Virus record (IMG/VR): IMGVR_UViG_3300045988_085446
Location: 1 to 37,550 of that record
DNA: 37,550 nucleotides
Source: a virus
Direction: 5' to 3' (one strand)
Part shown: positions 10,418-36,486 of the stretch, one piece after another
Position numbering within the stretch: position 1 is the stretch's first letter
Layout of the letters: every line of letters starts with the position of its first letter
Notes under the pieces: model-generated
Told to the model about the DNA's origin: nothing
Databases searched by the model: none
What the model saw: only the letters and a program-made list of their open reading frames with translations
Position numbers and translations under genes: made by a program

Positions 10418-11443
10418 TTATGCAATCTTGATATTTCTGAGTACACCTGCATGCTGTGTATTCTTGAGGACTGTAGCTGCAATCATCTCAACCTCAGCGT
10501 CCTTGACAGTGCCAGGCTCGTTGAAGTTTGGAAGATACTGATCAATCACTGAACCGCCATTCAGGCTGATTCCGTGGAATCCATCGTTTACGTCAAACTT
10601 GACTGCATAGACGTCTGTAAGACCTGTTGTTGCCGAGCTCTCCTTTGCGATGGTTCTTGAAAGTCCCTTCTTGACAACATGGCCAGCAGTTGCAGCACCA
10701 CTGCTTACAGTGTAATAGTCCTGCATATCAACAAGCTTGACACCATCAATAGTAGTGACACGCTTTCCGAATGCTTCCTCACTCTCTGTCTTGTATCCAA
10801 GGATACGAGCCACTGTCTGAATCTTGGTGATCATCTCTGTGTTAGTGAGCACCGCATCAGCATCTGTGGTCTTGACAAGAAGGCTCAGTGCCTCATAGAA
10901 CTCATCAGCATTAGACTTGATCGCTGTGATAGATGACAGATCAATAGCCTTGTCTGTGCCGTATTCTGTCGTTGTTCCCGCAAGCATGGAATCAAGTCCC
11001 TGGAACTCAGGGTGATCAGTTGATGCTGTTGTAGTTGCATCACCATTGATCAGTGTATAGTGGAAGAGGTTTACCACTGCCTTGATATGCTCCTCTATCT
11101 GATATGCCATATTGTCAAAGTTACCTGCTACCCTGTTGAGCACTCTGTCCATCTGAACAGCTCCGCCCATGATTGCAAGATTAGCCTCGCACTCCTGCTT
11201 AGTAGCCGCTGATGCAGTGTAAGAGCCACCTATCTTTCTGAACTCTGCTGTTGCTGGAAGTACCTTTCTGAGATACTTGTACTTCATTGTTGAGCCACCA
11301 CCTGATGCTGATACACAGTCATCAAATGTGAGCATCTGAAGTATTGTTGACTGTCTGAGGAAGATATCCACGATCTGTGAGAATACCTTATCACTCATAC
11401 CCTTCTTGATTTCCTCTAATGTCATTGCCATAGTTTTCACCAT
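10418..11443 (-). CDS. Major capsid protein
   Basis: 341 aa, directly after the scaffold gene, with a composition typical of HK97-fold capsid proteins. The true start may be the 2nd or 3rd ATG (MAMTLEEIKK). Confidence 0.8.
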   Translation of the reverse strand: MVKTMAMTLEEIKKGMSDKVFSQIVDIFLRQSTILQMLTFDDCVSASGGGSTMKYKYLRKVLPATAEFRKIGGSYTASAATKQECEANLAIMGGAVQMDRVLNRVAGNFDNMAYQIEEHIKAVVNLFHYTLINGDATTTASTDHPEFQGLDSMLAGTTTEYGTDKAIDLSSITAIKSNADEFYEALSLLVKTTDADAVLTNTEMITKIQTVARILGYKTESEEAFGKRVTTIDGVKLVDMQDYYTVSSGAATAGHVVKKGLSRTIAKESSATTGLTDVYAVKFDVNDGFHGISLNGGSVIDQYLPNFNEPGTVKDAEVEMIAATVLKNTQHAGVLRNIKIA

Positions 11444-11456
11444 TCCTTTCTACTTA

Positions 11457-12110
11457 TTACTGGGTATTGTCCCCTTCATATTTCTGTCTCAATGCCTCTG
11501 CCAAGTCCTTAGGTTCTGCATTCGTATTGTCCTGATTCCCACTTGGCAGTCTATTCTCAATGATGTGCCTCTTGCCATCATCTGAGCTGGATGAAGCTAT
11601 GAATTGAGCTGGGAACTGTGTCTTTAAGTCTGTGAGCATGCTGTCCCAGCCTTTGATATGACCTTCATCATCAAGCTTAAGCTCCTCATTCTTCTCCTTG
11701 AGGGCTGTCTTGATCTTATAGGTCATGTAATCAGTATCAACCGCATGAGCCTCAAGCAGAGCCACCTTGATAGCTGAATTGACCTTAGTCTCCTCAAGCT
11801 CCTTCTGAAGCCGTGCATTCTCAGTCTCGTAAGTTGATATCTTCTGCTGCATGCCCTCATCACCCTTAGAAGCTTTCTTGAGCTCCTCAATGAGCTTATT
11901 TGCATTGCCAATCTCCGTGTCTTTGCCGGTGATCAGTGTGTTGAGCTTGTCAAGTTCTGAATCATACTTATCTTTGCTGACGTACTTGCCCTCAGACAGA
12001 TCTGTGTATCTTACATGCTTGAGCTTATCTGTCTCTGTGCTGTTCTTCTCGTCAATCTTCGCCTGTACCTGCTTATACAGGTCATCTCCTAACAGTTCCT
12101 TTAATTCCAT
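11457..12110 (-). CDS. Scaffolding protein (GP20-type)
   Basis: Coiled-coil, charged protein. Start moved to the ATG giving MELKELLGDDLYKQVQAKIDE, preceded by AAAGGATGG. The track ORF begins at a GTG at 12143. Confidence 0.75.
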   Translation of the reverse strand: MELKELLGDDLYKQVQAKIDEKNSTETDKLKHVRYTDLSEGKYVSKDKYDSELDKLNTLITGKDTEIGNANKLIEELKKASKGDEGMQQKISTYETENARLQKELEETKVNSAIKVALLEAHAVDTDYMTYKIKTALKEKNEELKLDDEGHIKGWDSMLTDLKTQFPAQFIASSSSDDGKRHIIENRLPSGNQDNTNAEPKDLAEALRQKYEGDNTQ

Positions 12111-12219
12111 TGTTCCATCCTTTCTGGCTTTAAACGTAGCCACACATGGCAGTTATCACTCTTGCCGGAGTTATTCTTTATCGGTCACAGTTTTATTGCC
12201 TTGAGCCGATTTTGGGCAT

Positions 12220-12248
12220 AAAAAAAGACCATGTTTTTACCATGATCT
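12220..12248 (-). terminator. Intrinsic terminator downstream of the DUF2829/Tad2-like gene
   Basis: The minus RNA reads AGAUCAUG-GUAAAAA-CAUGGUCU, an 8-bp stem with one G-U pair, followed by UUUUUUUA. Confidence 0.7.
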
Positions 12249-12265
12249 AAATTAACTATTATTTT

Positions 12266-12733
12266 TTACTCAACTATTACCCAGTCTTCAGCAAGGCAAT
12301 CATTTATACTCGGCACCCACATAGAATGTGAACCATCAACACATCTGATCTGCAGATATGGGTTACACTTGAATAAGTCACCCTCGCTGATTCCCCAGGC
12401 TTCTGCGGTCTGCTTGTTACATGGTATGCCATCAGGATATCCCTTCTGGAATACAACAAACATTCCTTTGCCATTCCAACCCTTTCTTGCAACTCTGAAG
12501 CCCTTCTTGAGCATTTCAAGAGCAATCCCAAACGTCATGTTGTCACATGGTCTGTATGCTTCGTTAAACTGCTTCTCCGGCGACCAGCTCTCATATCCAT
12601 CTGAATATCTTACGAGATAGCCTTCATCTGCTGGATTTTCTTCCGTTGGAATCTGCCATCCTCTGTAATTGTTATAGTCGCCTCTTGTCATCGTTTTTGC
12701 CTCAATCTGTTTTGTTCCTACATACTTCTTCAT
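12266..12733 (-). CDS. Two-domain protein with C-terminal DUF2829 (Tad2-like) domain
   Basis: The C-terminal half MTFGIALEMLKKGFRVARKGWNGKGMFVVFQ...PYLQIRCVDGSHSMWVPSINDCLAEDWVIVE follows the DUF2829 consensus as I remember it. The N-terminal half is VGTKQIEAKTMTRGDYNNYRGW...GYESWSPEKQFNEAY. Strong RBS AGGAGGA. Confidence 0.75.
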   Translation of the reverse strand: MKKYVGTKQIEAKTMTRGDYNNYRGWQIPTEENPADEGYLVRYSDGYESWSPEKQFNEAYRPCDNMTFGIALEMLKKGFRVARKGWNGKGMFVVFQKGYPDGIPCNKQTAEAWGISEGDLFKCNPYLQIRCVDGSHSMWVPSINDCLAEDWVIVE

Positions 12734-12774
12734 TCTCTTATCCTCCTATTTTTGTGCATTAAAAAAGCACCCTG

Positions 12775-12966
12775 CTACTGCGGAGTGCTATCGTAAATAC
12801 TTTCAAATTTATATCCGTTGTCGCCATCAATATTTTTTTCGTGATTTATTTTATTCCAAAAAACATCTTCTGGGATTCCATCCGGATATGCTTTGCAATG
12901 GAATGTATTATTATCTTTTTTTCCTATAAAATTTTTGCAATCCAAACACTGAGAAAAAATAACCAT
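12775..12966 (-). CDS. Small Cys-rich hypothetical protein, translationally coupled to MuF
   Basis: 63 aa with CLDC...HCKAYPDGIPEDV. Its ATG overlaps the MuF stop codon (TAATG). Confidence 0.6.
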   Translation of the reverse strand: MVIFSQCLDCKNFIGKKDNNTFHCKAYPDGIPEDVFWNKINHEKNIDGDNGYKFESIYDSTPQ

Positions 12967-14495
12967 TACTTTACCTTCTTTAATACATATTTTTCTAGTA
13001 ATTTCATAATATTTGTTGGCAATTCTTCACCATGTCTATATTTTACAAACGCTTCTGCTATTGTTTCAGCTCCATCATACGTACTATCCGCATATAATGA
13101 AACACCTCTAATAAACTGTTCCCTAACTTTCTCTTCCATTTGTAAAAATAAACCATATGTATCGCAATTTTGAAATGTTAGTACATGCGCCATCTCATGT
13201 GCGATTAAGTCTTCAACATTTTGAGCGGCCAACACATTATTATTATGGTTTCTCATAATTCTAGCAGAAAATGCTTCTAGACTCCCATTAAAATCATAAT
13301 CTTTATTCAACACAAGTTTGTATTTCAAAAAACCGCCAACATTCTCTGGAACATACTGAAATGGCACTTTTTCATTGCCACTACCTAAACTTTCTAAATC
13401 AATATTGTTTATACGTACATTGTATTCTTCTTTTATCTTATCAAATGCATCACAAATGGCTTGCTTTGTTTCATTTGACATTCCCTTTATATTGTCGGTT
13501 TCTGACGGTAATTCAATTTTCTTTATTTTAACACTATTTTTTATATTATCAATATCTTCCTGGGTTATTCCCAAATACTTTCTCTGGTACTCCTCAAACT
13601 CTTTTGTCTTGTCAAGATCAAAGTATGTTGCCCTGTCCTTTAGAGCCTGAAGCTCTTCATCATCCAGCGCCCACCTTGCTCTCTGCAATAAGCAACAACG
13701 ACAGTTGCAGTCCTCTGCCGGATCTCCAAACATTCCAGGAGCCTCAACCTTGAGGTTTGCAACCTCAAAAGGCTCATCCACTTCCCTGATCTGTCCATCA
13801 AGCATCTGATGATGTTCTCTCGTGGCTCCGTCAAGGGTGGCATCCCACTGCTTCACTATGTCCGCTCCTTTGCTCTTTGCTACGTGCTGAGCGTCCAGCG
13901 CTGACTGTACCTGTATACGATGCCCTTCAGTCCTCGCAATGCGGATAGAATTGTTATAAGCCCTCTGGAACGGTGTATTTGCCATATGTCTTGAGAGCTT
14001 ACCAGCTACTTCATTCCACGTTGAGCCATTTGCAATGCCTCTTGATACCTCTGCTCTGACCGCTTTTTCGAGGTATGTCACATCCTCGCCCATCTTGTCG
14101 TAGAGCGACTTACTGAGCTTGCTGTCCGTCTGAATAGCTCTCACAACTGCCGCCTGATCTATCGGCATGATGATCGGAATACCTGTCTGCTGCAAGTCAT
14201 ACATGACACCTGTATATCCATTCCTGTAGCACTTCGTAAGATAATCAGACACCGTTGCATAGGAATTTGACTGCAAGTTGCTTAGAGCACCTTCAAGTTG
14301 TGCTTTCAAAGCCTCCTGATATTGTTTCTGGTATATGATGCTCTGCAAATTCTCCATGTCAGTTCTTGCAGACAACTCTCTGATCTTCTGCTCACAGTCT
14401 TTCAATGCCTGCTTATATGTATTCTTCAGGCTGGCAATAGTTTTTTCCTCGTTATGCAGTTGTTCCTCAATTACTTCTTTCTGTCTCTTATTCAT
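12966..14495 (-). CDS. Head morphogenesis protein, SPP1 gp7/Mu F family, with extra C-terminal HExxH (Zn-metallopeptidase-like) module
   Basis: MuF-type core NSIRIARTEGHRIQVQS...WDATLDGATREHHQMLDGQ...CNCRCC. HEMAH is encoded at 13185..13199. Probable ATG at 14495, 1 nt after the upstream stop; the track ORF starts at TTG 14507. Confidence 0.8.
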   Translation of the reverse strand: MNKRQKEVIEEQLHNEEKTIASLKNTYKQALKDCEQKIRELSARTDMENLQSIIYQKQYQEALKAQLEGALSNLQSNSYATVSDYLTKCYRNGYTGVMYDLQQTGIPIIMPIDQAAVVRAIQTDSKLSKSLYDKMGEDVTYLEKAVRAEVSRGIANGSTWNEVAGKLSRHMANTPFQRAYNNSIRIARTEGHRIQVQSALDAQHVAKSKGADIVKQWDATLDGATREHHQMLDGQIREVDEPFEVANLKVEAPGMFGDPAEDCNCRCCLLQRARWALDDEELQALKDRATYFDLDKTKEFEEYQRKYLGITQEDIDNIKNSVKIKKIELPSETDNIKGMSNETKQAICDAFDKIKEEYNVRINNIDLESLGSGNEKVPFQYVPENVGGFLKYKLVLNKDYDFNGSLEAFSARIMRNHNNNVLAAQNVEDLIAHEMAHVLTFQNCDTYGLFLQMEEKVREQFIRGVSLYADSTYDGAETIAEAFVKYRHGEELPTNIMKLLEKYVLKKVK

Positions 14496-14496
14496 A

Positions 14497-15039
14497 TCAC
14501 ATTTCAATAGACATCGTAAAAGCTCTTATTTCCCCTGGTTTGATTGTTACCGGTTCGAATACTTCTCTTGCAAGCATCATTCTGTAATATTCCCCGGTTT
14601 GGTCTATGCTATTATCAACCGAAGCTGCTATGAACCATCCCATTTCTGACACAGTTATATCTTCGATGCTATTGTTTCTCACAGTTATCGTAACTACTCG
14701 ATTTGTTTTGTACTCCTCTTTGTAAGCTTGTGCGATGTTTACGACGTGCAATCCAGAATCGCTATAAACGCATGGAGATTCTAATTTGTAATCATCACTC
14801 GTCGGGGCTGTTGTTCCACTTCCGACAAAAATCATGCTTCCGTAATAAAAATTATCGAGTGTGAAATCACCAGTTGGTGCTAATCTCCACAAGCACTGTG
14901 CAAAAACCTCCATTGCATTATTATAACCTAATGCACGTGTGACCTTTTGTATATCACCTGTTATGCCTTTGTATATCATCTTCATCTGCATTTGCGATGT
15001 ATATGCATTGAACACTTGCATAAAATTTGGCATTATCAT
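14497..15039 (-). CDS. Hypothetical protein (partner of the fibre-like gene)
   Basis: 180-aa ORF tightly packed between the fibre-like gene and MuF. No motif recognised. Confidence 0.55.
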   Translation of the reverse strand: MIMPNFMQVFNAYTSQMQMKMIYKGITGDIQKVTRALGYNNAMEVFAQCLWRLAPTGDFTLDNFYYGSMIFVGSGTTAPTSDDYKLESPCVYSDSGLHVVNIAQAYKEEYKTNRVVTITVRNNSIEDITVSEMGWFIAASVDNSIDQTGEYYRMMLAREVFEPVTIKPGEIRAFTMSIEM

Positions 15040-15053
15040 TTTTCGTTTACCTC

Positions 15054-16412
15054 CTACATTAACTCTTTTACTGCTGTAAATTCTTCTGTTCCTTTGTTTT
15101 CAAAATAAGTATTAGAAACATTGTCATAAAGCTTCGGTTTGTTATCTGCATCATATTTTGGTACAAAATCACGAACAAGGGTATCTCCATCATAAATTTT
15201 GCAATAGTAAATGTCTCCTATTTCACCAGATGTTAATACCTTTATATGAGAATCTCCAAACCCATACTCAAATGTTCCAACCTCATTTCCCTTTGCTATA
15301 TAACTACCAGATTCAATATCTTTAATGTAATTATTTCCAAGCTCAAATTCATACGTTTTTGTTGTATCAATCAAACCGCCTATAATTCTATGCCCATCAC
15401 CGCCGTAGTCCATATACCAATTATTACCATATCCAAAAAATCTAAGTGCCTGATCTCCACTTAACATCATTCCGACAAATATCGCTCCTGTTGCTTTCTG
15501 CATCTTAAATTTAAGCTGTATTTTTATAGTTGATTTTCCGTTTATTCCCGTGTCAACCCAGCTGTTTCCATCAGAATGCACGGCGGCAAATTTTTCTTCA
15601 AGCTTGCGACTTGTAACCTTTGTCTTTATTGCTTCACCCACATGTGTGATTGCCCCGATCTGGTTTGATGTATGTGTTTTTATGCTATTGCCGACTTTTG
15701 TTATCACAGAACCACTACCGCCAGTGCTTCCGCCGCTAGTCTTAATATCTAAAATGTTGTCATGCATCGTCTGGAATGTCGCATCTGTCGCCGTCTCAAC
15801 ACCTTTTTCAGTGATGGCAGATGCAACGAGACTTTTTCCATCACTGACAGATTTTTTTAGATTTTCTTCCGTTTCTTCTATTTTTTTTAACCGATCACCA
15901 ACAATCTTTGCATCTGCCGCTTCACCGGATATGGACAAAGTAGGGTCGACCTTAATCAAATATTTCATAAACTGTGCAATGATGTCTTTCTCCTGTTCAC
16001 TGTCTATTGCCTTTCCAAGTTCGCAACCATCAAGAACCTTTCCAACTGCAAGTTCTGTATTGTATTCCTGTGTTATATTTGATTCTTCATCTACCTTGGT
16101 AAAGCAGATCACGAAACCAACCGTACCAGGGACTCTGCAAGCCGTAGCACCTACAAGCCATGAGAATGTGATATAATCTTCATCGGTCACAGCTAAGTCA
16201 TCGACAGCATAACAATCCGTCTCATTATCCTCATTCACATAATTGACCTTTATGCTAAACTCAGACATATCATTCTTTTTATAATATCTCGGCATTTTAA
16301 AATGCTTTCTTGTCACATTTTTATCATGATATACTCCGAGTATCTTCTCATTTCCCGGAAGTGTAATCTTTCTCAAATTGCTATCTATTTTGCAATATGT
16401 TACATTCTCCAT
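15054..16412 (-). CDS. Fibre / receptor-binding-like protein (BppU-N-like N-terminus, GEAADAKIVGDRL motif, jelly-roll-like C-terminus)
   Basis: The motif DPTLSISGEAADAKIVGDRL is common in phage fibre proteins. The C-terminal pattern GDIYYCKIYDGDTLVRDFVP...LYDNVSNTYFENKGTEEF is typical of fibre tip domains. Confidence 0.6.
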   Translation of the reverse strand: MENVTYCKIDSNLRKITLPGNEKILGVYHDKNVTRKHFKMPRYYKKNDMSEFSIKVNYVNEDNETDCYAVDDLAVTDEDYITFSWLVGATACRVPGTVGFVICFTKVDEESNITQEYNTELAVGKVLDGCELGKAIDSEQEKDIIAQFMKYLIKVDPTLSISGEAADAKIVGDRLKKIEETEENLKKSVSDGKSLVASAITEKGVETATDATFQTMHDNILDIKTSGGSTGGSGSVITKVGNSIKTHTSNQIGAITHVGEAIKTKVTSRKLEEKFAAVHSDGNSWVDTGINGKSTIKIQLKFKMQKATGAIFVGMMLSGDQALRFFGYGNNWYMDYGGDGHRIIGGLIDTTKTYEFELGNNYIKDIESGSYIAKGNEVGTFEYGFGDSHIKVLTSGEIGDIYYCKIYDGDTLVRDFVPKYDADNKPKLYDNVSNTYFENKGTEEFTAVKELM

Positions 16413-16414
16413 CT

Positions 16415-17875
16415 TTATTCTTCACCACCAGTCTCTACATTTACCTTTTTCAACAGATCCTGCGCTTTTTTCGTATCGTCTTCTTCCTTTGCCGGCAGCT
16501 TGTCCTTGATCTCGTCATAATCAATATCAAGCCAGTCACAGATAGCTTTGATAATCGTCTCATCATCAAACATGCTTGCAACATCGAGTATTGTATTGAT
16601 CTCTGTCTGCCTTACCTGAGCCTCTGTAAGCTCTATCTGTGCATTTTCCTGAGCGTTGCTCATTATCTCGTGAGCGAACTCAAAATGAACATCCTCAGCC
16701 TTGTATGCCTTATTCTCAGCCTTATTTATCTCGTCAACAACTATCTCTACTATCTTCCTCAAGAACTTTCTAAGAGCTTTCTCTATCTTTTTTGCCTTAA
16801 GGTCAAGGAGCGAATAAGCCGCCTTGATAGCTATATTCGTAGTGGCTGATGTATCCTTGAGACCGGCGGTGTTCAACCCCATGCCGAACCTGTATATATT
16901 CTTTTCATCAAGCTCCAGTTTTGCCTGTCTTGCCTGGTATGGGACGTCAACAGTCTTGACATCTACGTCACCATCCTCACCTACACCTATGATCTTCTTT
17001 GTTTTGAGGTTTGTCTGAAGCTCATTCAGGTTGTCTCCCTGAAAGCCTTTGATAGCATATAGTGGGGAGTCAAAGTCTATGAGGTTGTTTGACAGGCTTG
17101 AGGCCATCAGGTCGTAGTCATCTATAAGTGGTTTGACAGGCTTAAGACTTGAGAACTGCTTCTTGTTGTTATCCAGCCGGAAGAATGGAATATAGCCAAA
17201 TCCATCAAAGTAGGTGGCCTTATCTCCATTATTCTTTGTGTAAAGTACATGAGGCTTTGGGTTGATTGGTTCAGTATCATCTAACACCACCGCCCCATTA
17301 TTAACCTGGACATAATAATATGTCTGCTTATCATCCCAGACCTGTATTCTCTCGATGGTCTTGTGTACTTTGTCTATCCTGTCTGTATAGTGGTATATCG
17401 TGTATGCACAGCCATCGTCCGTGTCCTTGGCTCTGACCTCAATAACTCCGATACTGTCAGCATTGGCAAATGACATCATATCCTTGGCATTCTTGTATGC
17501 GTACATATACGCAAAGCCTTTGACCTGCATATCTGTGATGGTGTCGGAGAACTCAGACATGAACTCATCATTGTTGTTAAAATACTTGTCCATGTGCTTC
17601 TGCAGTTCAGTGTCGTTGGACTTTACAATGCCATCCCCTGATAGGATATACTGGGTGCACTGGTCAACCAGCTCTGTGAAGAATGGATGTGGTATCTTCA
17701 CGTTGCTTCTAGTCTTGTCCTCTACCAGTTCGCCGTCCGCATTGTAGTAAAACAGTCTATACTTCTTTATGTCGTGATTGCCATCATAATATCGTTCACC
17801 AACTCTGGCGAATTGTTTTTTATCAGATGTTCTGTCACTGTCTATCAGCTCTTTTATTTCATCAATAGTTAGCAT
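16415..17875 (-). CDS. Portal protein (SPP1 Gp6-like)
   Basis: 486 aa directly after TerL. N-terminal pattern IDEIKELIDSD...RVGERYYDGNHDI. ATG start. Confidence 0.85.
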   Translation of the reverse strand: MLTIDEIKELIDSDRTSDKKQFARVGERYYDGNHDIKKYRLFYYNADGELVEDKTRSNVKIPHPFFTELVDQCTQYILSGDGIVKSNDTELQKHMDKYFNNNDEFMSEFSDTITDMQVKGFAYMYAYKNAKDMMSFANADSIGVIEVRAKDTDDGCAYTIYHYTDRIDKVHKTIERIQVWDDKQTYYYVQVNNGAVVLDDTEPINPKPHVLYTKNNGDKATYFDGFGYIPFFRLDNNKKQFSSLKPVKPLIDDYDLMASSLSNNLIDFDSPLYAIKGFQGDNLNELQTNLKTKKIIGVGEDGDVDVKTVDVPYQARQAKLELDEKNIYRFGMGLNTAGLKDTSATTNIAIKAAYSLLDLKAKKIEKALRKFLRKIVEIVVDEINKAENKAYKAEDVHFEFAHEIMSNAQENAQIELTEAQVRQTEINTILDVASMFDDETIIKAICDWLDIDYDEIKDKLPAKEEDDTKKAQDLLKKVNVETGGEE

Positions 17876-17887
17876 CTTTTTACCTCG

Positions 17888-19291
17888 CTATACCAGCCAT
17901 GTTCCCTTCGGCTTATCATTCTCATATACACCAGTCAGAGCATCGGGCGCATCATCATGAGCATTCTTACCCTCTTTCTGATACTTCCTTATTGCTTCCG
18001 CAAAATCTGGCCATCTGTCTTCCCAATTCACAGGGAAGAGAACGTTCTGCATTACTCCTGTGCTGTTTGACAGGATCCTTGATATCTTATTCTTCGACTG
18101 GAAGAACCACTGTATCTTAGTATGGGTATTCCCCAGAGCTTTTAATTCTCTTATAACATTCCTGCTGAATCCACGACCGCCATTGTTACTTTCTATCAAA
18201 GCATTACCGACATTATTCTTAGTCAGCATCTGAGCTGTCGCTGGTTCAGTCACTTCCATAGGTGCCTTTGTATATAAAACATCAAGTATGTAGTATGTAC
18301 TCTCATACATGCCATAACAAATAGAACACAGATAATCACTACCTGTGTCCGCTGTATCTGTATAATTCAATATATATTTGAACAGGCTATTGCCCTTACT
18401 ATCCCTTGGAATATCCGTATATGTCTTAATATGGCTGTATAATCTGCCTTTGACATCTATTGGCTCTTGCTGATAATTCGCAAGGACTATATCCTTATTC
18501 ATGTTCTTTGTTTTTATCTTGTAGTCCTTATATGACAGGATAGCTTCACAGAGCATTGTTCCATCGTCTTGTACTGCCTTGTAATTGATATGTACTACAT
18601 CGTCATAATTTGCAAGTACATAACCGGCTAAATCCTTTGTTGACCATCTTGTCATAATTATGATGATTTTGAAATCATTCTCAGTTCTGGACAGCATTGT
18701 ATTGTTAAACCAGTCAATCTGCTTCTGCAATACTGATTCATTGTAGGCTTCCTCACTGTTCTTGATAAGATCATCTATTATCATAATATTACAACCAAAT
18801 CCGGTTGCGGTACCTGTCGGAGAGGTGGCAAGGTAATTAGCCTGTTGACTGCCCTCAAGGCTCCACTTCTGTGCTGCAGCCTCTCCATACTTAATCTTTG
18901 TGCCAGGGAATATATCTTCATATGTCAGAATGCCCTCTGTAGGCTTTTCCGCAATCACATCCCTGACAGCCTTTGCAAAGGTTCCTGACAGGGTCTCATT
19001 ATATGAGCCTGTCATAACCTTTTTATCTATACCATATTTACCGAATAGCCACTGGACAAATTTGGTAGCCGTTCGTGACTTTCCATGTCGTGGTGGCATA
19101 TTTACAACCATTATCTGTTGTTCTGCATCTTCCACGAACCACTGTAGCTTATCTGCAAGATCATGCAGAAAGCCTCTGTCGTTACTATAGAAATCAGGAG
19201 AAGTCAGCTTGCAATACTGCCAGAACTCTCTCCTTGATAGCTCTATCTTTAGCTGTTGCTGTAATAAAGGGTCATGTCTATCAAACGTCAT
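17888..19291 (-). CDS. terL: Terminase large subunit
   Basis: Walker A-like NMPPRHGKSRT and a Walker B-like hydrophobic stretch plus DD (NIMIIDDLIK). The C-terminal nuclease half ends HDDAPDAL. The ATG at 19291 overlaps the TerS end. Confidence 0.9.
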   Translation of the reverse strand: MTFDRHDPLLQQQLKIELSRREFWQYCKLTSPDFYSNDRGFLHDLADKLQWFVEDAEQQIMVVNMPPRHGKSRTATKFVQWLFGKYGIDKKVMTGSYNETLSGTFAKAVRDVIAEKPTEGILTYEDIFPGTKIKYGEAAAQKWSLEGSQQANYLATSPTGTATGFGCNIMIIDDLIKNSEEAYNESVLQKQIDWFNNTMLSRTENDFKIIIIMTRWSTKDLAGYVLANYDDVVHINYKAVQDDGTMLCEAILSYKDYKIKTKNMNKDIVLANYQQEPIDVKGRLYSHIKTYTDIPRDSKGNSLFKYILNYTDTADTGSDYLCSICYGMYESTYYILDVLYTKAPMEVTEPATAQMLTKNNVGNALIESNNGGRGFSRNVIRELKALGNTHTKIQWFFQSKNKISRILSNSTGVMQNVLFPVNWEDRWPDFAEAIRKYQKEGKNAHDDAPDALTGVYENDKPKGTWLV

Positions 19292-19871
19292 CAATAAGTT
19301 TCTTCAATTCTTCGGTTGTAAGCCCCTCAAATGCATTTGGTGTGGTATTCTTCACTTCCACCTTTTCTGTGAACATACCCAAATGCTTACCCAGGAGCTC
19401 CAATGCCTGTATCTTGCTGTAAGGCTTTATTTCAAAGCCATCTCGACCCTTTTTTATCACTGCAATAGCTTTCTTCTGATCCTCTGTCAGATCATCTGTC
19501 AGAATAGGCTCTACTGTCCTGTATTTCACCTGATTGCCGTCCTCGTCAAGTACCGGGACCATGTTTCCATCAACCTCTACCATAGCGTCCTTTTCAACCA
19601 CTCTTGCATAGTCAGATGCTTTTGCAAATGCAATCAGTGCCAGTTCTCGTAGTACACTGTCCTGAGTAATCTCTGTGCGTTTTTCACGCTCTTTCTGACG
19701 TTCTTGAATATATGCTTTGACGTTAACATTGGTTAACAATCTGCTTGCAGCGGCCTTTGCCGTCTCGTCTTTTTTCACAGATGGATAAGCAGCCTTATAA
19801 GCTCGTGTGCCATTAAGGTCAACCAGCCATTCATCTGCAAATCTTTTTTGCTTTTCTGTTATCGCTCCCAA
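19281..19871 (-). CDS. terS: Terminase small subunit (Terminase_2-type)
   Basis: KQKRFADEWLVDLNGTRAYKAAYPSVKKDETAKAAASRLLTNVNVKAYI is the typical TerS HTH region. TTG start after GAAGGTG. Confidence 0.85.
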   Translation of the reverse strand: MGAITEKQKRFADEWLVDLNGTRAYKAAYPSVKKDETAKAAASRLLTNVNVKAYIQERQKEREKRTEITQDSVLRELALIAFAKASDYARVVEKDAMVEVDGNMVPVLDEDGNQVKYRTVEPILTDDLTEDQKKAIAVIKKGRDGFEIKPYSKIQALELLGKHLGMFTEKVEVKNTTPNAFEGLTTEELKKLIDDV

Positions 19872-22944: not shown

Positions 22945-24555
22945 CTACGCAAACATCATCAACTGTCCATTTGCTTCCTCTGCAACTCTCATATTTGCTG
23001 TTCTTCTTGCAACACACATTTCCGGAAGATTTGCTCTCACAAGTGCAGCCGGTATCGGCGGGCATACTGCATTACCGCATCTTCTTACCTGCTCCGTTCT
23101 CGGATATGTCTTGCCAGTATAATCATGATCAATAATGTAATCTTCTGGAAATCCCTGACATCCATATAACTCTCGTGGTTCCAACATTCGAAGTCCGATA
23201 TCCGCAATCTGGTAATCAACACCCTCAATCGTTACAAGACCAAATCTATCCTTTGTGGTAACCGTGTCTAATGGTTGTTCAATGTCCTGTCCGGTAGCAT
23301 CACCATAGTATTTGATCAGAAATGCCCGGACTTCTCCAAAATGCCCGGCTGATGTTGTCACTGTATGCAGTGGCTCTCTCTCATCCTGCCCTATCCCTGT
23401 CTTGTAAAACTTGCTGAGGAACGAAGTCACAAGGCCATATCTGTTTGAGCTGTCTACTGTCATGATCGGATTCTCTATACCCTGGCCTCGCACCTCATCT
23501 GAATTGGTCTCCGAATGGTATTGAATAAGAGTAGCTGCGACCAGCCGGTTATGATCCACTGTCGTTATCGTATCAATTGGGTCTTCGGCTTTACTCCCAC
23601 CACCTTTATAATTTCCGCCATACGTTTTATCTATAATTGGGGCAAGTCTCGGTTCTACAACTCCATATCCATGCTTGCCTGTGATTGTCGGCATCGGATC
23701 TCTTATATCCTGCGGCTTTCTTTCGCCGCCATGATTGCATTGAATGATGAATGGCTCTGGATTGTCCAGAACGAACTTCTTCAGCCCTCTTGCAATCCTC
23801 TGCATAGTCTTTGGCGCAAGTGGTCTCACCGACCGGATACCATACTTCTCCTTGATCTCCTCTGATGTATCAAAGATACTTGGACATGGTAGGCTAAAAT
23901 CAAGCTGTGTATATGCTCCAACATAAGGTTTGAGCAGTCCCATCTTGACCTCTTCACTGTCTGCCGGTGCATGTGTAGGCTTTGGCCACATGATAGGTGC
24001 ACCATCACACCTTGCGATCATAAAGAACCTTTTTCTTTTAGTCGGTGCTCCGTAGTCTGCCGCCACAAGCTCTCTGAACTGTACCTCATATCCCAGCTCA
24101 TTGAGCTGCTTTACAAACTGTCTGAATGTATCACCTTGCTTTGCCCTTATTGGATGATGTCCTCTGTTGAGTGGTCCCCATGTCTTGAACTCTTCGACAT
24201 TCTCAAGCATGATCACTCTCGGTCTCACAAGTGCCGCCCATCTGCATGCTACCCATGCCAGCCCTCTGATGTTCTTATCCTTTGGCTTGCCACCTTTGGC
24301 CTTGCTGAAATGCTTACAGTCTGGGGAGAACCAGGCAAGAGCTACCGGATGACCCTCACATGCTTTCACTGGATCAACCGCCCACACGTTCTCACAATAG
24401 TGCTTTGTGTTTGGATGATTGACCTTATGCATCCTTATGGCTTCCGGATCATGATTGATTGCTATATCAACACTGTACCCTGTAGCCATCTCAATTCCTG
24501 TTGATGCTCCACCACCACCGGCGAAGTTATCAACGATAAGTTCTCCGTTTATCAT
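22945..24555 (-). CDS. DNA (cytosine-5)-methyltransferase with long repeated variable region
   Basis: Motif I FAGGGGAS, motif IV SPDCKHFS, motif VI MLENV, motif VIII APTKRKRFFMIA, motif X GNAVCPP. Confidence 0.9.
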   Translation of the reverse strand: MINGELIVDNFAGGGGASTGIEMATGYSVDIAINHDPEAIRMHKVNHPNTKHYCENVWAVDPVKACEGHPVALAWFSPDCKHFSKAKGGKPKDKNIRGLAWVACRWAALVRPRVIMLENVEEFKTWGPLNRGHHPIRAKQGDTFRQFVKQLNELGYEVQFRELVAADYGAPTKRKRFFMIARCDGAPIMWPKPTHAPADSEEVKMGLLKPYVGAYTQLDFSLPCPSIFDTSEEIKEKYGIRSVRPLAPKTMQRIARGLKKFVLDNPEPFIIQCNHGGERKPQDIRDPMPTITGKHGYGVVEPRLAPIIDKTYGGNYKGGGSKAEDPIDTITTVDHNRLVAATLIQYHSETNSDEVRGQGIENPIMTVDSSNRYGLVTSFLSKFYKTGIGQDEREPLHTVTTSAGHFGEVRAFLIKYYGDATGQDIEQPLDTVTTKDRFGLVTIEGVDYQIADIGLRMLEPRELYGCQGFPEDYIIDHDYTGKTYPRTEQVRRCGNAVCPPIPAALVRANLPEMCVARRTANMRVAEEANGQLMMFA

Positions 24556-27071
24556 GGCTGCACCTCCAAGAAATCAAACAATGTCGGTGAATCAACTTCA
24601 TTCTCCTCTGCCTGTAAATACCCAACACCATCTCTGAAATAATCAGGATTCAGTTCACAGCCCTTACCGAACCGGTGCATTTTAACAGCCATCATCGGTA
24701 CCGTCATAAGGCCACCGAACGGATCATATACAACATCTCCCGGATTGCTATACCGGTTGATGATTCTTTCAACGATATCAAGCTGTAAAGGACATACATG
24801 CATGGTTGCCCTTCTCTGGCTCTGTGTCGTATTAAGAGTTCTCATTCTGTTAATATCATCCCATACCTCAAGCTGGTTCCATGATCCCGGAGCTACTACC
24901 ATGAATGTAGCTGGTAATCTTCCATCCATATCAAGCTCCTTTGCAAGTGCCACATGATCCTCATAGTTATATACATGCTCTCTGCTGTACTGTCTGTATA
25001 CTCTCTGTAAGTTGTCCACAGATACGCCCTCAAGTTCTTCTTTACTCACAAGCCTGTCTCCTGAGCTTCTCCAGTATCCGTGAGCATCTATCTGCCACTG
25101 TGCCCTTGTGTATTCATCCTTGGACTTAGTAACCGGCTCATCAGCGTATGCCTTGCTGTGATTCGTTGGCAGTTTGCGGAACAGTAAAATATATTCAGGG
25201 CATCCAACTCCCATCTTGGTACCATCCTTACACTGTTCCGTCCATCCAAGGCGGTAGGTCTGGTTGTTCTCTCTGACAACATCCGTCACAACTGTGATCA
25301 TGCCAAAATACTGAAATCCATGGCTCATATAATGTTCTATACAGTCAGCATGAAATGGTTCAATAGTTGGCATTCCTGTTCCGGTAGCATTTCCGAACAG
25401 CACTCTGTCTTTAACATGAATAGCTGCAACTCTTCCCGGCTTCAACACCCTTAAAAGCTCCGGTGTCAAGAAATCCATCTGTTCAAAGAACCTCTCTGTA
25501 TTCTGATTGTGTCCAAAATCGTTATAATTTGCTGAATATTCATAATGATTACCGAATGGTATTGACGTATGGATCAAATCAATGCTGTTGCTTTCCATCG
25601 CTCTTGTTTCTTCCACACAGTCACCATATACGGCTTCGTAATGATTTCCTCTTACTGTTCTTTCTTCTCTTGTACCTTCCACACCCATCTTCCTTTCTAA
25701 CCGCTCTGTTTTATTCGCTGAATCAAGTCCATACTTTTTCACGATCTCGATCATCTTCTGCACCATATGATCATGATTCTTCCATTTCTCAATTAAAGCA
25801 TTTTTAATCTCTCGCTCATTCTCCATATAGATTATGTCTATAACCACAGTTTCTTTTTGCAAGAATCTATAGCATCTGTGAATAGCCTGTATGAAGTCAT
25901 TGAACTCATAATCAATACCAACAAATATCTCCCTGTGACAGAATCGCTGAAAGTTACATCCTGAACCACTGATTGACTTCTTTGTTGCAAATAGTCTCGT
26001 TTTACCTTCTGAGAAATCTATAACTCTCTGTTCTCTAAGGTCATAGTCCATAGATCCGTATATATCCACTGTCTCCGGCAGAGCTTTCTTGATCGCATGT
26101 CGCTCTGCTTCCTGATCATGCCATAGTATAAAATGATCATCCGGCGAACTGTCTACAATCTCACGCATCTTTTCTACTCGCTCATTGATACTCTCCCGCT
26201 TCACCTTTGCAGCTTCTTTCAAACCTGCAGATGCCTGTGTAAACAACTCCATTTGCCCATCTTTATCAACTGTATCTCCATAGTGAACCGGTATCTCATG
26301 CCATCTAACATCCAGAGGTGGTAAGTCATAACCATTATCAGAATAATCTGGATTGAGATCCGATGGCTTTGTAATGAAAAGTGCCCAACTACTCACCCAC
26401 AGCCAGAACTCATCTTCCATGTTTGGGTACAGTGTCAGGTTATTTGCCTTTGTTGAATCCCTCTGAAAGAATCTTGTAAGTGCCTGTCCTGTATCCATGA
26501 CTTCAAGATATCCAGCATAGTGTATAAGCTCCTTGTACTTGTTCGGTGATGGTGTAGCAGTCGCTACGAGCTTGTAAGGTACATTTTTGAACTTATCAAG
26601 GAACGTCTGATATGTCTTAGATCCAAATGATCTAAGCACGGATGCTTCATCAAGTGAGGTTGCCGCAAAATACGATGGATCTATATCTCCGTCTCTCACT
26701 CTCTCATAATTCGTCAGAACGATCTGACTTGTGCTTGCCTCAACCTCTTCCATGGTTCGGCAATACTCTGGTTTCTCATAGCCCAGGAGTTCCACGGCAT
26801 CCCTTGTAAACTCCTGCTTAACTCCAAGTGGTAATACGATCAATGCTCTACCACCTGTATGTTCTGCTGCAATATGACAAAATTCTATTTCCTGTGCAGT
26901 CTTACCAAGTCCGAAAGACTCAAACAAGGCTCTACGTCCACCTTTCAGTGCCCATGCCACTGCATCTCTCTGGTGTGGCTTTAATGCTTTGTTAATACGG
27001 TTCTTGTCAACCGAAAAACCACTATCAACTGCAAGTTCTATCTTGCTTTCTAAAAACTCTTTGTAATTCAT
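24552..27071 (-). CDS. Fusion protein: N-terminal SNF2/DEAD-like helicase plus C-terminal N6/N4 (beta-class) DNA methyltransferase
   Basis: Helicase motif I FGLGKT and motif II LDEAS. Methyltransferase catalytic-position motif HTSIPFGN (encoded at 25554..25565). HVCPLQLDIVERII...GDVVYDPFGGLMT is the AdoMet motif I near the C-terminus. Confidence 0.8.
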   Translation of the reverse strand: MNYKEFLESKIELAVDSGFSVDKNRINKALKPHQRDAVAWALKGGRRALFESFGLGKTAQEIEFCHIAAEHTGGRALIVLPLGVKQEFTRDAVELLGYEKPEYCRTMEEVEASTSQIVLTNYERVRDGDIDPSYFAATSLDEASVLRSFGSKTYQTFLDKFKNVPYKLVATATPSPNKYKELIHYAGYLEVMDTGQALTRFFQRDSTKANNLTLYPNMEDEFWLWVSSWALFITKPSDLNPDYSDNGYDLPPLDVRWHEIPVHYGDTVDKDGQMELFTQASAGLKEAAKVKRESINERVEKMREIVDSSPDDHFILWHDQEAERHAIKKALPETVDIYGSMDYDLREQRVIDFSEGKTRLFATKKSISGSGCNFQRFCHREIFVGIDYEFNDFIQAIHRCYRFLQKETVVIDIIYMENEREIKNALIEKWKNHDHMVQKMIEIVKKYGLDSANKTERLERKMGVEGTREERTVRGNHYEAVYGDCVEETRAMESNSIDLIHTSIPFGNHYEYSANYNDFGHNQNTERFFEQMDFLTPELLRVLKPGRVAAIHVKDRVLFGNATGTGMPTIEPFHADCIEHYMSHGFQYFGMITVVTDVVRENNQTYRLGWTEQCKDGTKMGVGCPEYILLFRKLPTNHSKAYADEPVTKSKDEYTRAQWQIDAHGYWRSSGDRLVSKEELEGVSVDNLQRVYRQYSREHVYNYEDHVALAKELDMDGRLPATFMVVAPGSWNQLEVWDDINRMRTLNTTQSQRRATMHVCPLQLDIVERIINRYSNPGDVVYDPFGGLMTVPMMAVKMHRFGKGCELNPDYFRDGVGYLQAEENEVDSPTLFDFLEVQP

Positions 27072-34176: not shown

Positions 34177-34199
34177 AAGCATTGCAAGGAGGTGTTGAT

Positions 34200-34592
34200 A
34201 TGCCATACGAGGAATTTAATAAATTATTTGCTAAAAATCTACGATATTACTTAAATAAAAATAATATGACACAGGCTGAACTTGCAAAACGCTTAAATGT
34301 TGGAACTACATCTGTATACAACTGGTGCAACGGTATTAAATCACCAAGAATGGATAAAGTAGATGCCATGTGTGATATATTCAACTGTAAGAGATCTAAC
34401 CTAATTGAAGATAAAGAACATGTTGAAGAAAATGAATATTATCTTGATCCGGAAACAGCTAAAAAGGCACAGGAGATCTTTGAGAACAAGCAGCTCTCTC
34501 TTCTCTTCGATGCCGCAAGGGACGCAGAGCCAGAGGACTTGGAGACAGTTCACACAATGCTCATGGCTCTCAAGAATAAAGAGAAACGATAA
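34200..34592 (+). CDS. CI-like XRE-family repressor
   Basis: NMTQAELAKRLNVGTTSVYNWCNG is an XRE HTH, followed by a C-terminal non-HTH extension. ATG after AGGAGG; the track ORF begins at 34182. Confidence 0.8.
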   Translation: MPYEEFNKLFAKNLRYYLNKNNMTQAELAKRLNVGTTSVYNWCNGIKSPRMDKVDAMCDIFNCKRSNLIEDKEHVEENEYYLDPETAKKAQEIFENKQLSLLFDAARDAEPEDLETVHTMLMALKNKEKR

Positions 34593-34917: not shown

Positions 34918-36486
34918 ATGAATCAAAAACAAGAAAACAAATGGTATTTAAGTACATGGTTTATTGCTATTCTATGCGCATGCTGGTTTCTTATACTTCC
35001 AGCAATCGGCGGCATAGTATTGATGATAATGAAGACCTTGGATGAAAAGAAACAAAAAGAAACCAATCAACAAATTAGTCAACAGAATGCCCAACTTGCG
35101 GCCCAGAATGCTCAGATGAATCAAGCAATGCAAGACATGAATAAGACTATGCAGGATTTAGGGGTGCATGACCATCAGCAGTCGATGGCTAAGCTTAACC
35201 AGGTGAATGCCGAAATATCCGAAAACCTTGCCACTATAGATAAATTGCGTTCAGACATTGCTACACTTCAGGCAAAAGATGATAAACTGCAAAAATCAGT
35301 AGCGACCCAGGAGCGAAAGATCTCTCGTGCTAAGGAGATCTACAGCAGTATTGAATATGCATTAAATAACTTCATTACTGCTGACATTCCATATAACGAA
35401 TGCCGAATTAGCCAATCAGATATTGAGGATGCTAATCTCATTGCCCCATCTGTTATCCTTAAATTACATTGTATGGATATAAAAAGCTTGCGAAAAGCAT
35501 ACAGAGAAAATGAGAAATCCATTGACACTCTCAGACAGCAATATGCTATCAGATACACTACTAAAGCCAACAAAACTATTTACGACCTCATTGTCAAGGG
35601 GCTGGAATCTGAGATGCAGAACGTCTTGTACAATTTAAAATATGACAAGCTTGATAACGGTATTGAACAAATAAAAGATATCTGTGCTAAGTATCTAAAG
35701 ATTGCAGCTGAAGGTAATCAAACAATTGCTGGAACTCTTACTAAGTTCATAGGTGAAATGGAATATCTTTTCATTAATGCTGCAAAGATAGAGTATAACT
35801 ACTACGTCAAGAAAGAACAGGCAAAGCAAGAACAGCTTGCAATCAAAGAGCAGATGCGCCAGGAGGCAGAGGAGCGCAAGGCCCTTGAGGCCGAACGTAA
35901 AAAAGTGGAGCTTGAAGAGTCAAAATATGAGAATCAGATATCTTCCCTCAAAGAACAGGCGGAAGCTTCAGAGGGTGAAGCCCTTGCTGCTCTGCAAGCT
36001 CGTATCCTTGAACTGCAGGCTCAGCTTGCAGATGTAACAATCAAAAAGGATGAAATAGCAAAGTTGCAAAATGGTAAAGCTGGTAATGTTTATATTATCA
36101 GCAACTTGGGTTCATTTGGTGAGAATGTATTCAAAGTGGGAATGACAAGAAGAATAAATCCACAGGATAGAGTTAATGAACTTGGAGATGCTTCTGTTCC
36201 GTTCAAATTTGATGTACACAGCTTTATTTTCTCTGATGACGCTTCCGGTCTTGAAACCGAACTTCACAAGAGACTTAATGATCGCAGAGTAAACAAGGTA
36301 AATCTTAGAAAAGAGTTCTTTAATGTATCAATAGATGAACTTGAAGAACTTGTAAATGAGATCTGCCCTACTGCAGAGTTCAACAGAACAATGCTTGCTG
36401 AAGAATACAGACAGTCACTGTCAAGTTCTGAAGCATATACCTCTGAATATTCAACAGAGAATGAGACAGATGATGAGGATGAATAA
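34918..36486 (+). CDS. Membrane-anchored DUF4041 + T5orf172 (GIY-YIG-like) nuclease-domain protein (SNIPE-type)
   Basis: TM segment aa 9..38 and long coiled-coil-like regions. C-terminal block GNVYIISNLGSFGENVFKVGMTRRINPQDRVNELGDASVPFKFDVHSFIFSDDASGLETELHKRLNDRRVNKVNLRKEFF (nt 36082..36357). RBS GAAGGGAG. Confidence 0.8.
   Translation: MNQKQENKWYLSTWFIAILCACWFLILPAIGGIVLMIMKTLDEKKQKETNQQISQQNAQLAAQNAQMNQAMQDMNKTMQDLGVHDHQQSMAKLNQVNAEISENLATIDKLRSDIATLQAKDDKLQKSVATQERKISRAKEIYSSIEYALNNFITADIPYNECRISQSDIEDANLIAPSVILKLHCMDIKSLRKAYRENEKSIDTLRQQYAIRYTTKANKTIYDLIVKGLESEMQNVLYNLKYDKLDNGIEQIKDICAKYLKIAAEGNQTIAGTLTKFIGEMEYLFINAAKIEYNYYVKKEQAKQEQLAIKEQMRQEAEERKALEAERKKVELEESKYENQISSLKEQAEASEGEALAALQARILELQAQLADVTIKKDEIAKLQNGKAGNVYIISNLGSFGENVFKVGMTRRINPQDRVNELGDASVPFKFDVHSFIFSDDASGLETELHKRLNDRRVNKVNLRKEFFNVSIDELEELVNEICPTAEFNRTMLAEEYRQSLSSSEAYTSEYSTENETDDEDE

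Follow-up and report, generated by a model that had tools for sequence, protein, structure and literature searches.

MuF polymorphic toxins of temperate phages were described as a class in 2017; 20% of them carry a metallopeptidase domain and 89% are followed by a small downstream open reading frame (ORF) (Jamet et al., PMC5576092). The domains behind the 20% figure are not itemised in the available part of the supplementary text of that paper. For two members of the class, MuF-Apk2 and MuF-Bxa, experiments have shown toxicity as well as its neutralisation by small proteins encoded next to them (PMC11699363). The characterised MuF toxins named in that paper are Apk2 and, added there, Bxa, and neither is of metallopeptidase type; the Apk2 proteins are (p)ppApp synthetases and Bxa is an ADP-ribosyltransferase (PMC11699363, PMC12226406). 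Here, we describe a MuF locus in the virus record IMGVR_UViG_3300045988_085446 of IMG/VR (positions 1 to 37,550; this whole stretch of 37,550 nucleotides (nt) is called the window below). Its MuF minor head protein ends in a predicted zincin-like metallopeptidase module and is followed by a gene of 63 amino acids (aa). The locus is probably a MuF-family polymorphic effector ("MuF toxin") with its immunity partner, carried by a temperate Clostridia phage, as judged from sequence conservation and structure prediction.

Zincin metallopeptidases (MPTases) are also hubs of virion-delivered polyvalent proteins, for which an action after injection or in (auto)processing was proposed (Iyer et al. 2017, PMC5512222). 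For the metallopeptidase toxin Tox-ALF, the listed immunity is Imm-SuFu and not a zinc mini-protein, and most metallopeptidase toxins have no immunity family listed (Zhang et al. 2012, PMC3482391).

The locus in the window shares with the MuF toxins an MuF N-terminus encoded in the head block after the portal gene, a variable enzymatic C-terminus and a small ORF directly behind it. A temperate phage of Firmicutes as carrier and a pool of modules common to other toxin systems are likewise shared and, as far as in silico tests reach, the locus has every feature that defines the class. An earlier reading of the window, made from the sequence only, had pointed to MuF proteins that carry variable C-terminal toxin domains and a downstream immunity gene, and MuF toxins with a small ORF behind them are indeed a published class (PMC5576092). 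The MuF toxin concept is thus already known, since the class was described in 2017 with its metallopeptidase ends and small downstream ORFs. New here are an uncurated zincin family and a large uncurated partner family with a CCC(C/H) pattern that is strictly tied to it. Both would count as "extensions without known domains", because neither has a Pfam model. Clear orphan, poly-partner and core-deleted variants are also new; they differ from the MuF toxins described so far in that the available part of the text of PMC5576092 does not mention such variants.

Zincin-like module at the end of the MuF protein

The MuF gene corresponds to an ORF at 12966..14507 on the minus strand (-), which translates to 513 aa when read from a TTG. 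Translation more likely begins at the ATG at 14495, for a product of 509 aa, since it is at this point (MNKRQKEV) that relatives start to align in both protein and DNA; residue numbering throughout follows the 513-aa version. Phage_Mu_F (PF04233) matched aa 149–273 above the gathering score (E = 2e-17), and head proteins of PHROG 595/115 matched the N-terminal MuF part. Together with DNA homology to sibling phages, the Pfam and PHROG matches delimit a conserved, SPP1 gp7-like minor head protein part from aa 1 to ~311 (13574..14507 (-)). The sequence-only reading had placed a standard MuF domain here, which was recovered, and its limits at aa 290 and 330 were approximately right. They are refined to a recombination junction at ~aa 311–318, from which the extra C-terminal region extends, and to a folded domain from ~aa 335.

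The folded zincin-like metallopeptidase module was predicted at aa ~335–513 which, with the stop codon, corresponds to 12966..13505 (-), on the basis of an AlphaFold2 (AF2) model, Foldseek and a family profile. Its HEMAH motif (aa 437–441) is encoded at 13185..13199 (-), exactly where the earlier reading had put it, and contains the putative zinc ligands H437 and H441 and the putative catalytic base E438. The chance expectation of HExxH in a protein of such composition is 0.017, so the motif is more than a chance occurrence. A second conserved stretch, the Glu-helix region Y472…D-G-A-E481-T-I-A-E485, is encoded at 13053..13094 (-).

A word-indexed search with the module returned 19 relatives, and an exhaustive profile search returned 302 clusters at E < 1e-3, in which the module almost always forms the C-terminus of proteins of 450–630 aa. 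The module rides on at least three head-protein N-terminal families: among the 63 full-length members the carriers were Phage_Mu_F (42), Phage_min_cap2 (16) and VG15 (5). Identity to the window protein falls to ~20% among these homologues, and N401, H437, E438, H441, S470, E481 and E485 were nevertheless invariant in all of them, with G468, Y472, G479 and A484 conserved in at least 90%. The HEMAH residues H437, E438 and H441 were also invariant in 13 close homologues. The earlier reading had staked its case on HExxH being conserved among relatives, and the motif held at both distances. We conclude that the catalytic inventory appears intact and under selection.

The AF2 model of aa 300–513 reached a predicted local distance difference test (pLDDT) score of 89.8 and a predicted template modelling (pTM) score of 0.81. 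A weak linker (aa 300–334) is followed by a long helix, three beta-strands, a helix, the HExxH helix and a later helix with E481-x3-E485. In model numbering, the first helix (46–63) and the three strands (70–73, 84–91 and 94–102), all with pLDDT above 88, make up a gluzincin core; HEMAH then lies within helix 132–146 and E481/E485 within helix 180–192, so that the HExxH motif is followed by a Glu helix. E481 is the putative third zinc ligand, because E481xxxE485 parallels the ExxxD motif known from gluzincin families, and Y472 is a candidate transition-state residue.

The metallopeptidase signature noted in the sequence-only reading was borne out by the structure search of the C-terminal region, which gave a zincin fold by AF2 and led Foldseek to metalloprotease-labelled phage proteins in BFVD. 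The top BFVD matches were family members labelled "minor capsid protein" (E = 1e-14). Lower matches comprised phage proteins labelled lethal factor, matrixin, metalloprotease, SprT-like and endopeptidase M34, with E from 4e-4 to 2e-2 for the entries labelled "lethal factor"; further matches were an N4-type virion RNA polymerase and an ART-PolyVal protein.

Polyvalent-protein MPTases (PMC5512222), including ArdC-C and the MPTase of N4 virion RNA polymerase, have the same succession of helix, three strands, HExxH helix and Glu helix. They are likewise fused to virion proteins, MuF among them, with HHpred and Foldseek both pointing to anthrax lethal factor. In contrast, the window protein is a simple two-domain protein and not a giant multidomain one, and Pfam MPTase-PolyVal gave no match to it with E values allowed up to 10. 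The available part of PMC5512222 also does not describe for polyvalent MPTases a dedicated small partner gene such as the one present here.

Lethal factor and PPEP (MEROPS M34), together with Tox-ALF (PMC3482391), share with the module an HExxH motif, a downstream Glu and a conserved Tyr a few residues before the Glu helix. Lethal factor and PPEP are also its best, though weak, structural matches (1pwq and 9g0j in PDB, "lethal factor" and "M34" labels in BFVD). Sequence similarity to them is undetectable, and the PDB Foldseek comparison with them gave E = 0.23–0.34 and TM scores of 0.2–0.3. The Tyr-to-Glu spacing is 9 residues in the module and 7 in lethal factor and PPEP. Two other metallopeptidase types were considered. 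SprT-like was the sole signal in the database comparison of aa 330–513, sub-threshold at the HExxH (E = 0.061; 13.6 bits vs a cut-off of 25.6), and the HExxHxxQ signature of DUF4157 (PVC-metallopeptidase) is not present, the window protein having HEMAHVLTFQ instead. From conservation and the predicted structure, we conclude that the module is a putative protease, most consistent with a gluzincin-type zincin peptidase domain of the phage polyvalent-protein kind.

Cassette borders and exchange among sibling phages

The linker, the zincin module and the 63-aa partner gene make up an exchangeable cassette at 12775..13573 (-), delimited by a shift in the content of guanine and cytosine (GC) and by homology breakpoints. 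The GC content is 0.28–0.33 between ~13600 and 12800 vs 0.45–0.53 in the flanks, and the GC content at third codon positions drops from 0.50 in the MuF part to 0.23 (module) and 0.28 (mini-gene). Sibling comparisons were made with the best 80 of 369 IMG/VR relatives of the N-terminal 285 aa, these 80 being 67–100% identical to the window protein over that part. The siblings were divided into classes by their C-terminal region. DNA homology to phages of all classes covers 14500/14418 down to 13552–13573, and homology to siblings of classes other than the window's own, whose MuF N-termini are 67–95% identical, ends at these last positions, which correspond to aa 311–318. It returns at 12771–12789, just past the mini-gene stop (12775), in class 1 and class 8 phages, which keep the Tad2-like gene behind the cassette, and at ~12266 in class 2, 3 and 7 phages without that gene. 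Module and mini-gene are exchanged as one unit, because sibling DNA homology breaks at their outer borders. The composition shift and the breakpoints coincide, and by these measures the cassette is an import.

Beyond a common junction (...EFEEYQ.KY...), the 80 siblings carry at least nine unrelated C-terminal classes, and in 8/9 classes a class-specific small ORF of 56–99 aa overlaps the stop codon or closely follows it. Class 1 (n = 20) has an HEFGH zincin and a downstream ORF of 68 aa. Class 2 (n = 17) shows an HNHP…S..D motif, JAB-like by eye and not confirmed by Pfam, with an ORF of 57 aa, and class 3 (n = 11) an HEFAH zincin with a weak Peptidase_M90 match and no small ORF found near the MuF stop. 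Class 4 (n = 7) has an R…S.S motif, which resembles ADP-ribosyltransferases (ART-like) by eye and was not confirmed by Pfam, and an ORF of 73 aa; class 5 (n = 6) has a double zincin with a weak DUF6782 match and a 56-aa CxxC…CxxC protein. The window's module and its 63-aa ORF define class 6 (n = 5). Class 7 (n = 5) carries Pfam Gln_amidase / papain-fold toxin 1 (Tox-PL1; E = 8e-13) with an ORF of 90 aa, class 8 (n = 3) an HEYGH zincin with an ORF of 61 aa, and class 9 (n = 2) no identified module and an ORF of 99 aa. An HExxH motif thus occurs in 5/9 classes.

Because siblings swap in at least eight other modules at the same junction, the C-terminal region does not belong to the MuF fold; the module swapping for which the earlier reading had suggested a survey of MuF homologues is seen among these siblings. 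Modules common to other toxin families are found both among the siblings, as Gln_amidase (Tox-PL1), and in the toxin-island loci L150/L151 described below. A broad hidden Markov model (HMM) of the module (mod2) gave weak matches in all sibling classes, which were ignored since its envelope takes in the MuF tail. The best promoter-like site of the region, at the 5' junction of the cassette inside MuF (13525..13552 (-); TTGATA-16-TAAAAT with a TG extension, 10/12) was rejected and given no weight, because such sites are fewer in the region than in shuffles (8 vs 11.5).

In the class-5 loci L105, L106, L113, L120 and L136 (~5606–5790), the 434-aa end contains two HExxH domains, of which the first is a distant relative of the window's module, and a different 56-aa zinc-ribbon-like CxxC…CxxC ORF lies behind. 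Zincin modules may repeatedly have been paired with small zinc-binding partners.

These exchanges bear on whether the zincin could be a morphogenetic or processing protease, which would trim MuF, scaffold or head proteins or free the MuF domain in the head, with the mini-protein as a regulator and no effector role. Near-identical backbones carry unrelated domains in its place, namely a Gln deamidase toxin and sequences with JAB-like and ART-like motifs. Moreover, the catalytic core is deleted in some prophages, and the pair also occurs on a non-phage protein in a toxin island and as chromosomal orphans. The best PHROG match of the whole protein, PHROG 595, is labelled "head maturation protease"; however, this match spans aa 5–351 only, that is, the MuF part and not the zincin. 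A processing role would agree with the autoprocessing that Iyer et al. propose as one function of MPTases (PMC5512222), and no separate prohead protease was identified among the window ORFs scanned. On balance, we consider a processing role improbable.

The 63-aa partner gene and its displaced copies

The partner gene (12775..12966 (-)) encodes a 63-aa putative immunity or inhibitor protein, a CCCH mini-protein, and is coupled to the MuF gene via TAATG. Its ATG lies within ...AAG GTA AAG TAATG G... and overlaps the MuF stop by 1 nt, confirming the earlier claim that the ORF begins inside the MuF stop codon. A Shine-Dalgarno-like AAGG is located 7 nt upstream of the start. The protein had also been called Cys-rich; it contains only three Cys, and C7, C10, C24 and H42 form the conserved pattern. 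Close homologues keep M1, V2, F4, C7, C10, C24, I31, W37, H42, I46 and G51, and the family consensus, taken from 39 distinct sequences of paired loci, is C..C…C.AFP.GIP…E-C-NNG..FE. The fourth putative ligand is Cys in most family members and His (H42) in the window's clade. From this pattern, the mini-protein likely has a small zinc-binding fold. It is matched by PHROG 33375 (function unknown; E = 1e-7).

To survey the occurrence of the partner, 68 loci retrieved with the module were scanned with HMMs over their six-frame ORFs; 49 of these loci were viral, 16 genomic (Lachnospiraceae, Ruminococcus, Oscillospiraceae, Hornefia and others) and 3 metagenomic. A member of the partner family lay directly downstream of the module in 64/68 loci, with a start/stop distance of −16 to +5 nt in 60 of these 64. 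The four loci without a partner are L019, which ends at the stop codon, L068, which is a truncated fragment, and the most distant relatives, L040 and L041. Among the 80 siblings, scanned in all frames, the family was present in 5/5 class-6 loci and in 0/75 of the others. The 63-aa ORF thus corresponds to the small downstream ORF (<150 aa) of MuF toxins. Its constancy behind the module, its absence with other modules and its exchange together with the module uphold the earlier view of a cognate partner. Pairwise divergences of module and partner are correlated (r = 0.78), a value reached in 0/2000 Mantel permutations.

A profile of the partner family matched 4,816 clusters, and a module or its remnant was found directly upstream of 5/5 sampled distant partner genes, which had been picked for long contigs. 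The family is without a family model and was tied to the zincin in every case examined. One could tentatively imagine that the C-x2-C…C-x-AFP-x-GIP…C/H mini-proteins (>4,800 clusters) form a new class of metallopeptidase inhibitors, providing immunity against a virion-injected protease, a proposal that we put forward with considerable reserve. Some family members of 60–64 aa (P0197, P0234) are named "glutamyl-tRNA amidotransferase" in NCBI, almost certainly a propagated annotation error.

Several loci contain the pair in altered form. L058 (Pseudoruminococcus massiliensis) and L015 have three divergent mini-gene paralogues behind the MuF-module gene, with an orphan fragment carrying a JAB-like motif between them. 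In L003 and L064, a second, 5'-truncated C-terminal module fragment follows and then another mini-gene; these extra pairs resemble the orphan C-terminal toxin/immunity pairs of contact-dependent growth inhibition (CDI) as well as Rhs loci. An internal deletion in L155 (3757–5186) and L156 removes the catalytic core including HExxH, while the mini-gene does not differ from the one in L157, the intact sibling. L153/L154 (3385–3686) retain only the last 39 aa of the module and an intact mini-gene, between NUDIX and peptidyl-prolyl isomerase genes. In L150 (1646–3692) and L151 (1634–3692), the module ends a protein of 617/621 aa without an MuF domain, whose N-terminal 400 aa belong to no family, and the mini-gene lies behind it. 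The genes around them encode a WHH/Colicin-DNase toxin, two SUKH immunity proteins and a MafB19-type deaminase, and the setting is a classical polymorphic-toxin island.

Displaced C-terminal fragments beside partners, poly-immunity arrays and recombination at a conserved junction are features that the family shares with CDI, Rhs and LXG loci. The difference is that the carrier here is a phage head protein, and the module would be ejected from the virion into the host of the phage itself instead of passing through a secretion system into a competitor.

These variants also bear on the function of the partner. The 63-aa protein might be an obligatory accessory of a delivered protease (a zinc-ribbon adaptor for substrate or nucleic acid, a chaperone or an activator) rather than its inhibitor. 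This would suit the strict linkage and correlated divergence, the fixed stoichiometry that translational coupling would give, and the pairing of a distantly related zincin with another small CxxC…CxxC protein in class-5 siblings. It would also suit the C.AFP.GIP stretch, which is conserved more strongly than is usual in immunity proteins. Such a role is hard to reconcile with three divergent tandem paralogues behind one module (L058/L015), with the position of the pair among classical toxin/immunity pairs, and with partner genes that stay intact where the module is deleted or reduced to a stub, since a cofactor without its enzyme should decay. We therefore regard it as rather unlikely; the arrays, orphans, core-deleted variants and toxin-island pair fit immunity genes better than cofactors.

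Pairs also stand alone among housekeeping genes (L001/L054 and L002). In L003 (115–4960), seven copies of a 43-nt palindromic repeat, CTTGAACGACCCGCCAAAAATGGTGCATCGTTCAAC, lie 330–2270 nt apart and flank small cassettes, two of which are truncated module and mini-gene pairs, giving the array an integron- or CALIN-like look; the repeat was not found in the window nor in the 147 other loci searched. The cassette would accordingly be open to a reading as a selfish addiction module, similar to toxin–antitoxin systems, which hitch-hikes in a permissive late-operon spot and whose fusion to MuF has no delivery function. Its module is almost always an in-frame head-protein fusion, as in the 42 MuF, 16 Phage_min_cap2 and 5 VG15 full-length members, and the stand-alone copies, whose start lies within the linker or the MuF tail, have the look of displaced fragments. 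Although the stand-alone pairs in housekeeping neighbourhoods (L001, L002), the pairs in the repeat-flanked array of L003 and the adjacent Tad2-like gene, which shows that the site tolerates accessory genes, speak for selfish maintenance, we consider it very improbable.

Several observations weigh against the preferred reading of an MuF effector with an immunity partner. Peptidase-type MuF ends may not be strongly toxic; for peptidase or ADP-ribosyltransferase activities, no more than moderate toxicity is expected by Jamet et al. (PMC5576092). Comparison with Pfam, NCBIfam, PADLOC and PDB sequences gave nothing usable for either aa 330–513 or the mini-protein. None of the Foldseek matches of the module in PDB was significant, the best being 1pwq (anthrax lethal factor, E = 0.23) and 9g0j (PPEP-3), and AF2 produced a poor model of the mini-protein alone (pLDDT 58). 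The correlated divergence of module and partner can come from co-inheritance alone. Partners are ~32–34% identical while their modules are 24–44% identical, which is unusually conserved for an immunity protein, and this conservation pattern would also fit an obligatory cofactor. The ejection step, finally, is inferred by analogy with earlier work on SPP1 gp7.

In SPP1, gp7 attaches to the portal, each head contains a few copies of it, and it exits together with the DNA. By analogy, the MuF N-terminus of the window protein would be its capsid-targeting part, binding the portal, being packaged in few copies per head and leaving with the DNA. The C-terminal ~180 aa would act as an active-looking gluzincin-type metallopeptidase of the lethal-factor-like or polyvalent-protein MPTase kind, in which H437, H441 and E481 are predicted to bind zinc and E438 to serve as catalytic base. 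Translational coupling would allow the 63-aa CCCH protein to be made in step with the protease, and in the producing cell this partner most likely keeps the protease silent by binding to it, i.e., acts as an immunity protein. Recombination just after the MuF core (aa ~311–318) would exchange the two-gene cassette among phages and even into non-phage toxin loci. Candidate targets are a host defence, a resident-prophage protein or a physiological protein. The analysis shows the domain identities, the conserved catalytic residues, the cassette borders, the strict linkage of module and partner, the polymorphism of the site and the orphan and poly-partner arrays; we infer that the module cleaves proteins, that the partner inhibits it, that the protein is packaged and ejected, and what it targets.

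On the same reserved view, the retention of the mini-gene after loss of the protease, together with stacked paralogues, points to resident copies that block the effector of related phages on their arrival. If this is true, the gene for immunity would also function as a superinfection or anti-phage defence, and the phage would require the injected protease to establish infection, e.g., through cleavage of a resident repressor or a defence protein. Gut prophages widely carry MuF toxins, and peptidase ends are common among these toxins. The locus provides a compact test case, with a 180-aa zincin with clear catalytic residues, a 63-aa partner and natural core-deleted and orphan variants, to which sibling phages differing essentially only in the cassette add value. 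From it one could learn how injecting a protease benefits a phage, and a new family of zincin inhibitors might be defined.

Phage background and neighbouring genes

The source of the window is a temperate phage of gut Clostridia. A tyrosine integrase (36662..37549 on the plus strand (+); PF00589, E = 5e-6), cut by the window end, and an HTH_3 regulator are encoded, and homologues of the locus were found within bacterial contigs of 0.3–1 Mb. The lysogeny end of this ~38 kb temperate phage comprises the genes at 34182..34592 (+), 34918..36486 (+) and 36662..37549 (+), and the integrase is adjoined by the HTH_3 regulator and a 522-aa T5orf172/MUG113-domain protein. A megablast search of the region against GenBank phages gave no match.

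The MuF gene lies within the packaging and head module. On the minus strand, the small terminase subunit (19281..19871 (-)) is followed by the large terminase subunit (17888..19294 (-)), the portal (16415..17875 (-)), MuF, the scaffold (11457..12143 (-)) and the capsid (10418..11443 (-)). Portal and MuF genes are usually adjacent. In the window, the interval between them (14497..16412 (-)) contains two inserted ORFs of 452 and 180 aa, which belong to no family. DNA homology to siblings is lost there at ~15970/15790 and is back at 14500, so the interval forms a second hypervariable spot of the head module.

Behind the partner gene lies an accessory gene of the Tad2-like (Thoeris anti-defence 2) family (12266..12733 (-); PF11195, E = 4e-24). 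A terminator-like hairpin with a T-run, a pattern match from a consensus scan only, is located at 12226..12248 (-), after the block of MuF, 63-aa ORF and Tad2-like gene and before the scaffold. Among the siblings, the Tad2-like gene was found in 5/5 class-6, 17/20 class-1, 1/3 class-8 and 1/7 class-4 phages and in no other class. It is taken as context only, because it is present or absent independently of the module class and so forms a separate variable cassette. It marks the interval between MuF and scaffold as an accessory (counter-defence) hotspot. A Tad2-like gene also follows MuF and the partner gene in the unrelated lineage L155–L157, beside a retropepsin-like Asp_protease_2 gene.

Elsewhere in the window, the region 22945..27071 (-) encodes an 839-aa fusion of SNF2 helicase and N6-adenine methylase, followed by a 536-aa C5 cytosine methylase. 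This pair resembles the SWI2/SNF2–methylase module of the polyvalent and anti-restriction proteins of Iyer et al.

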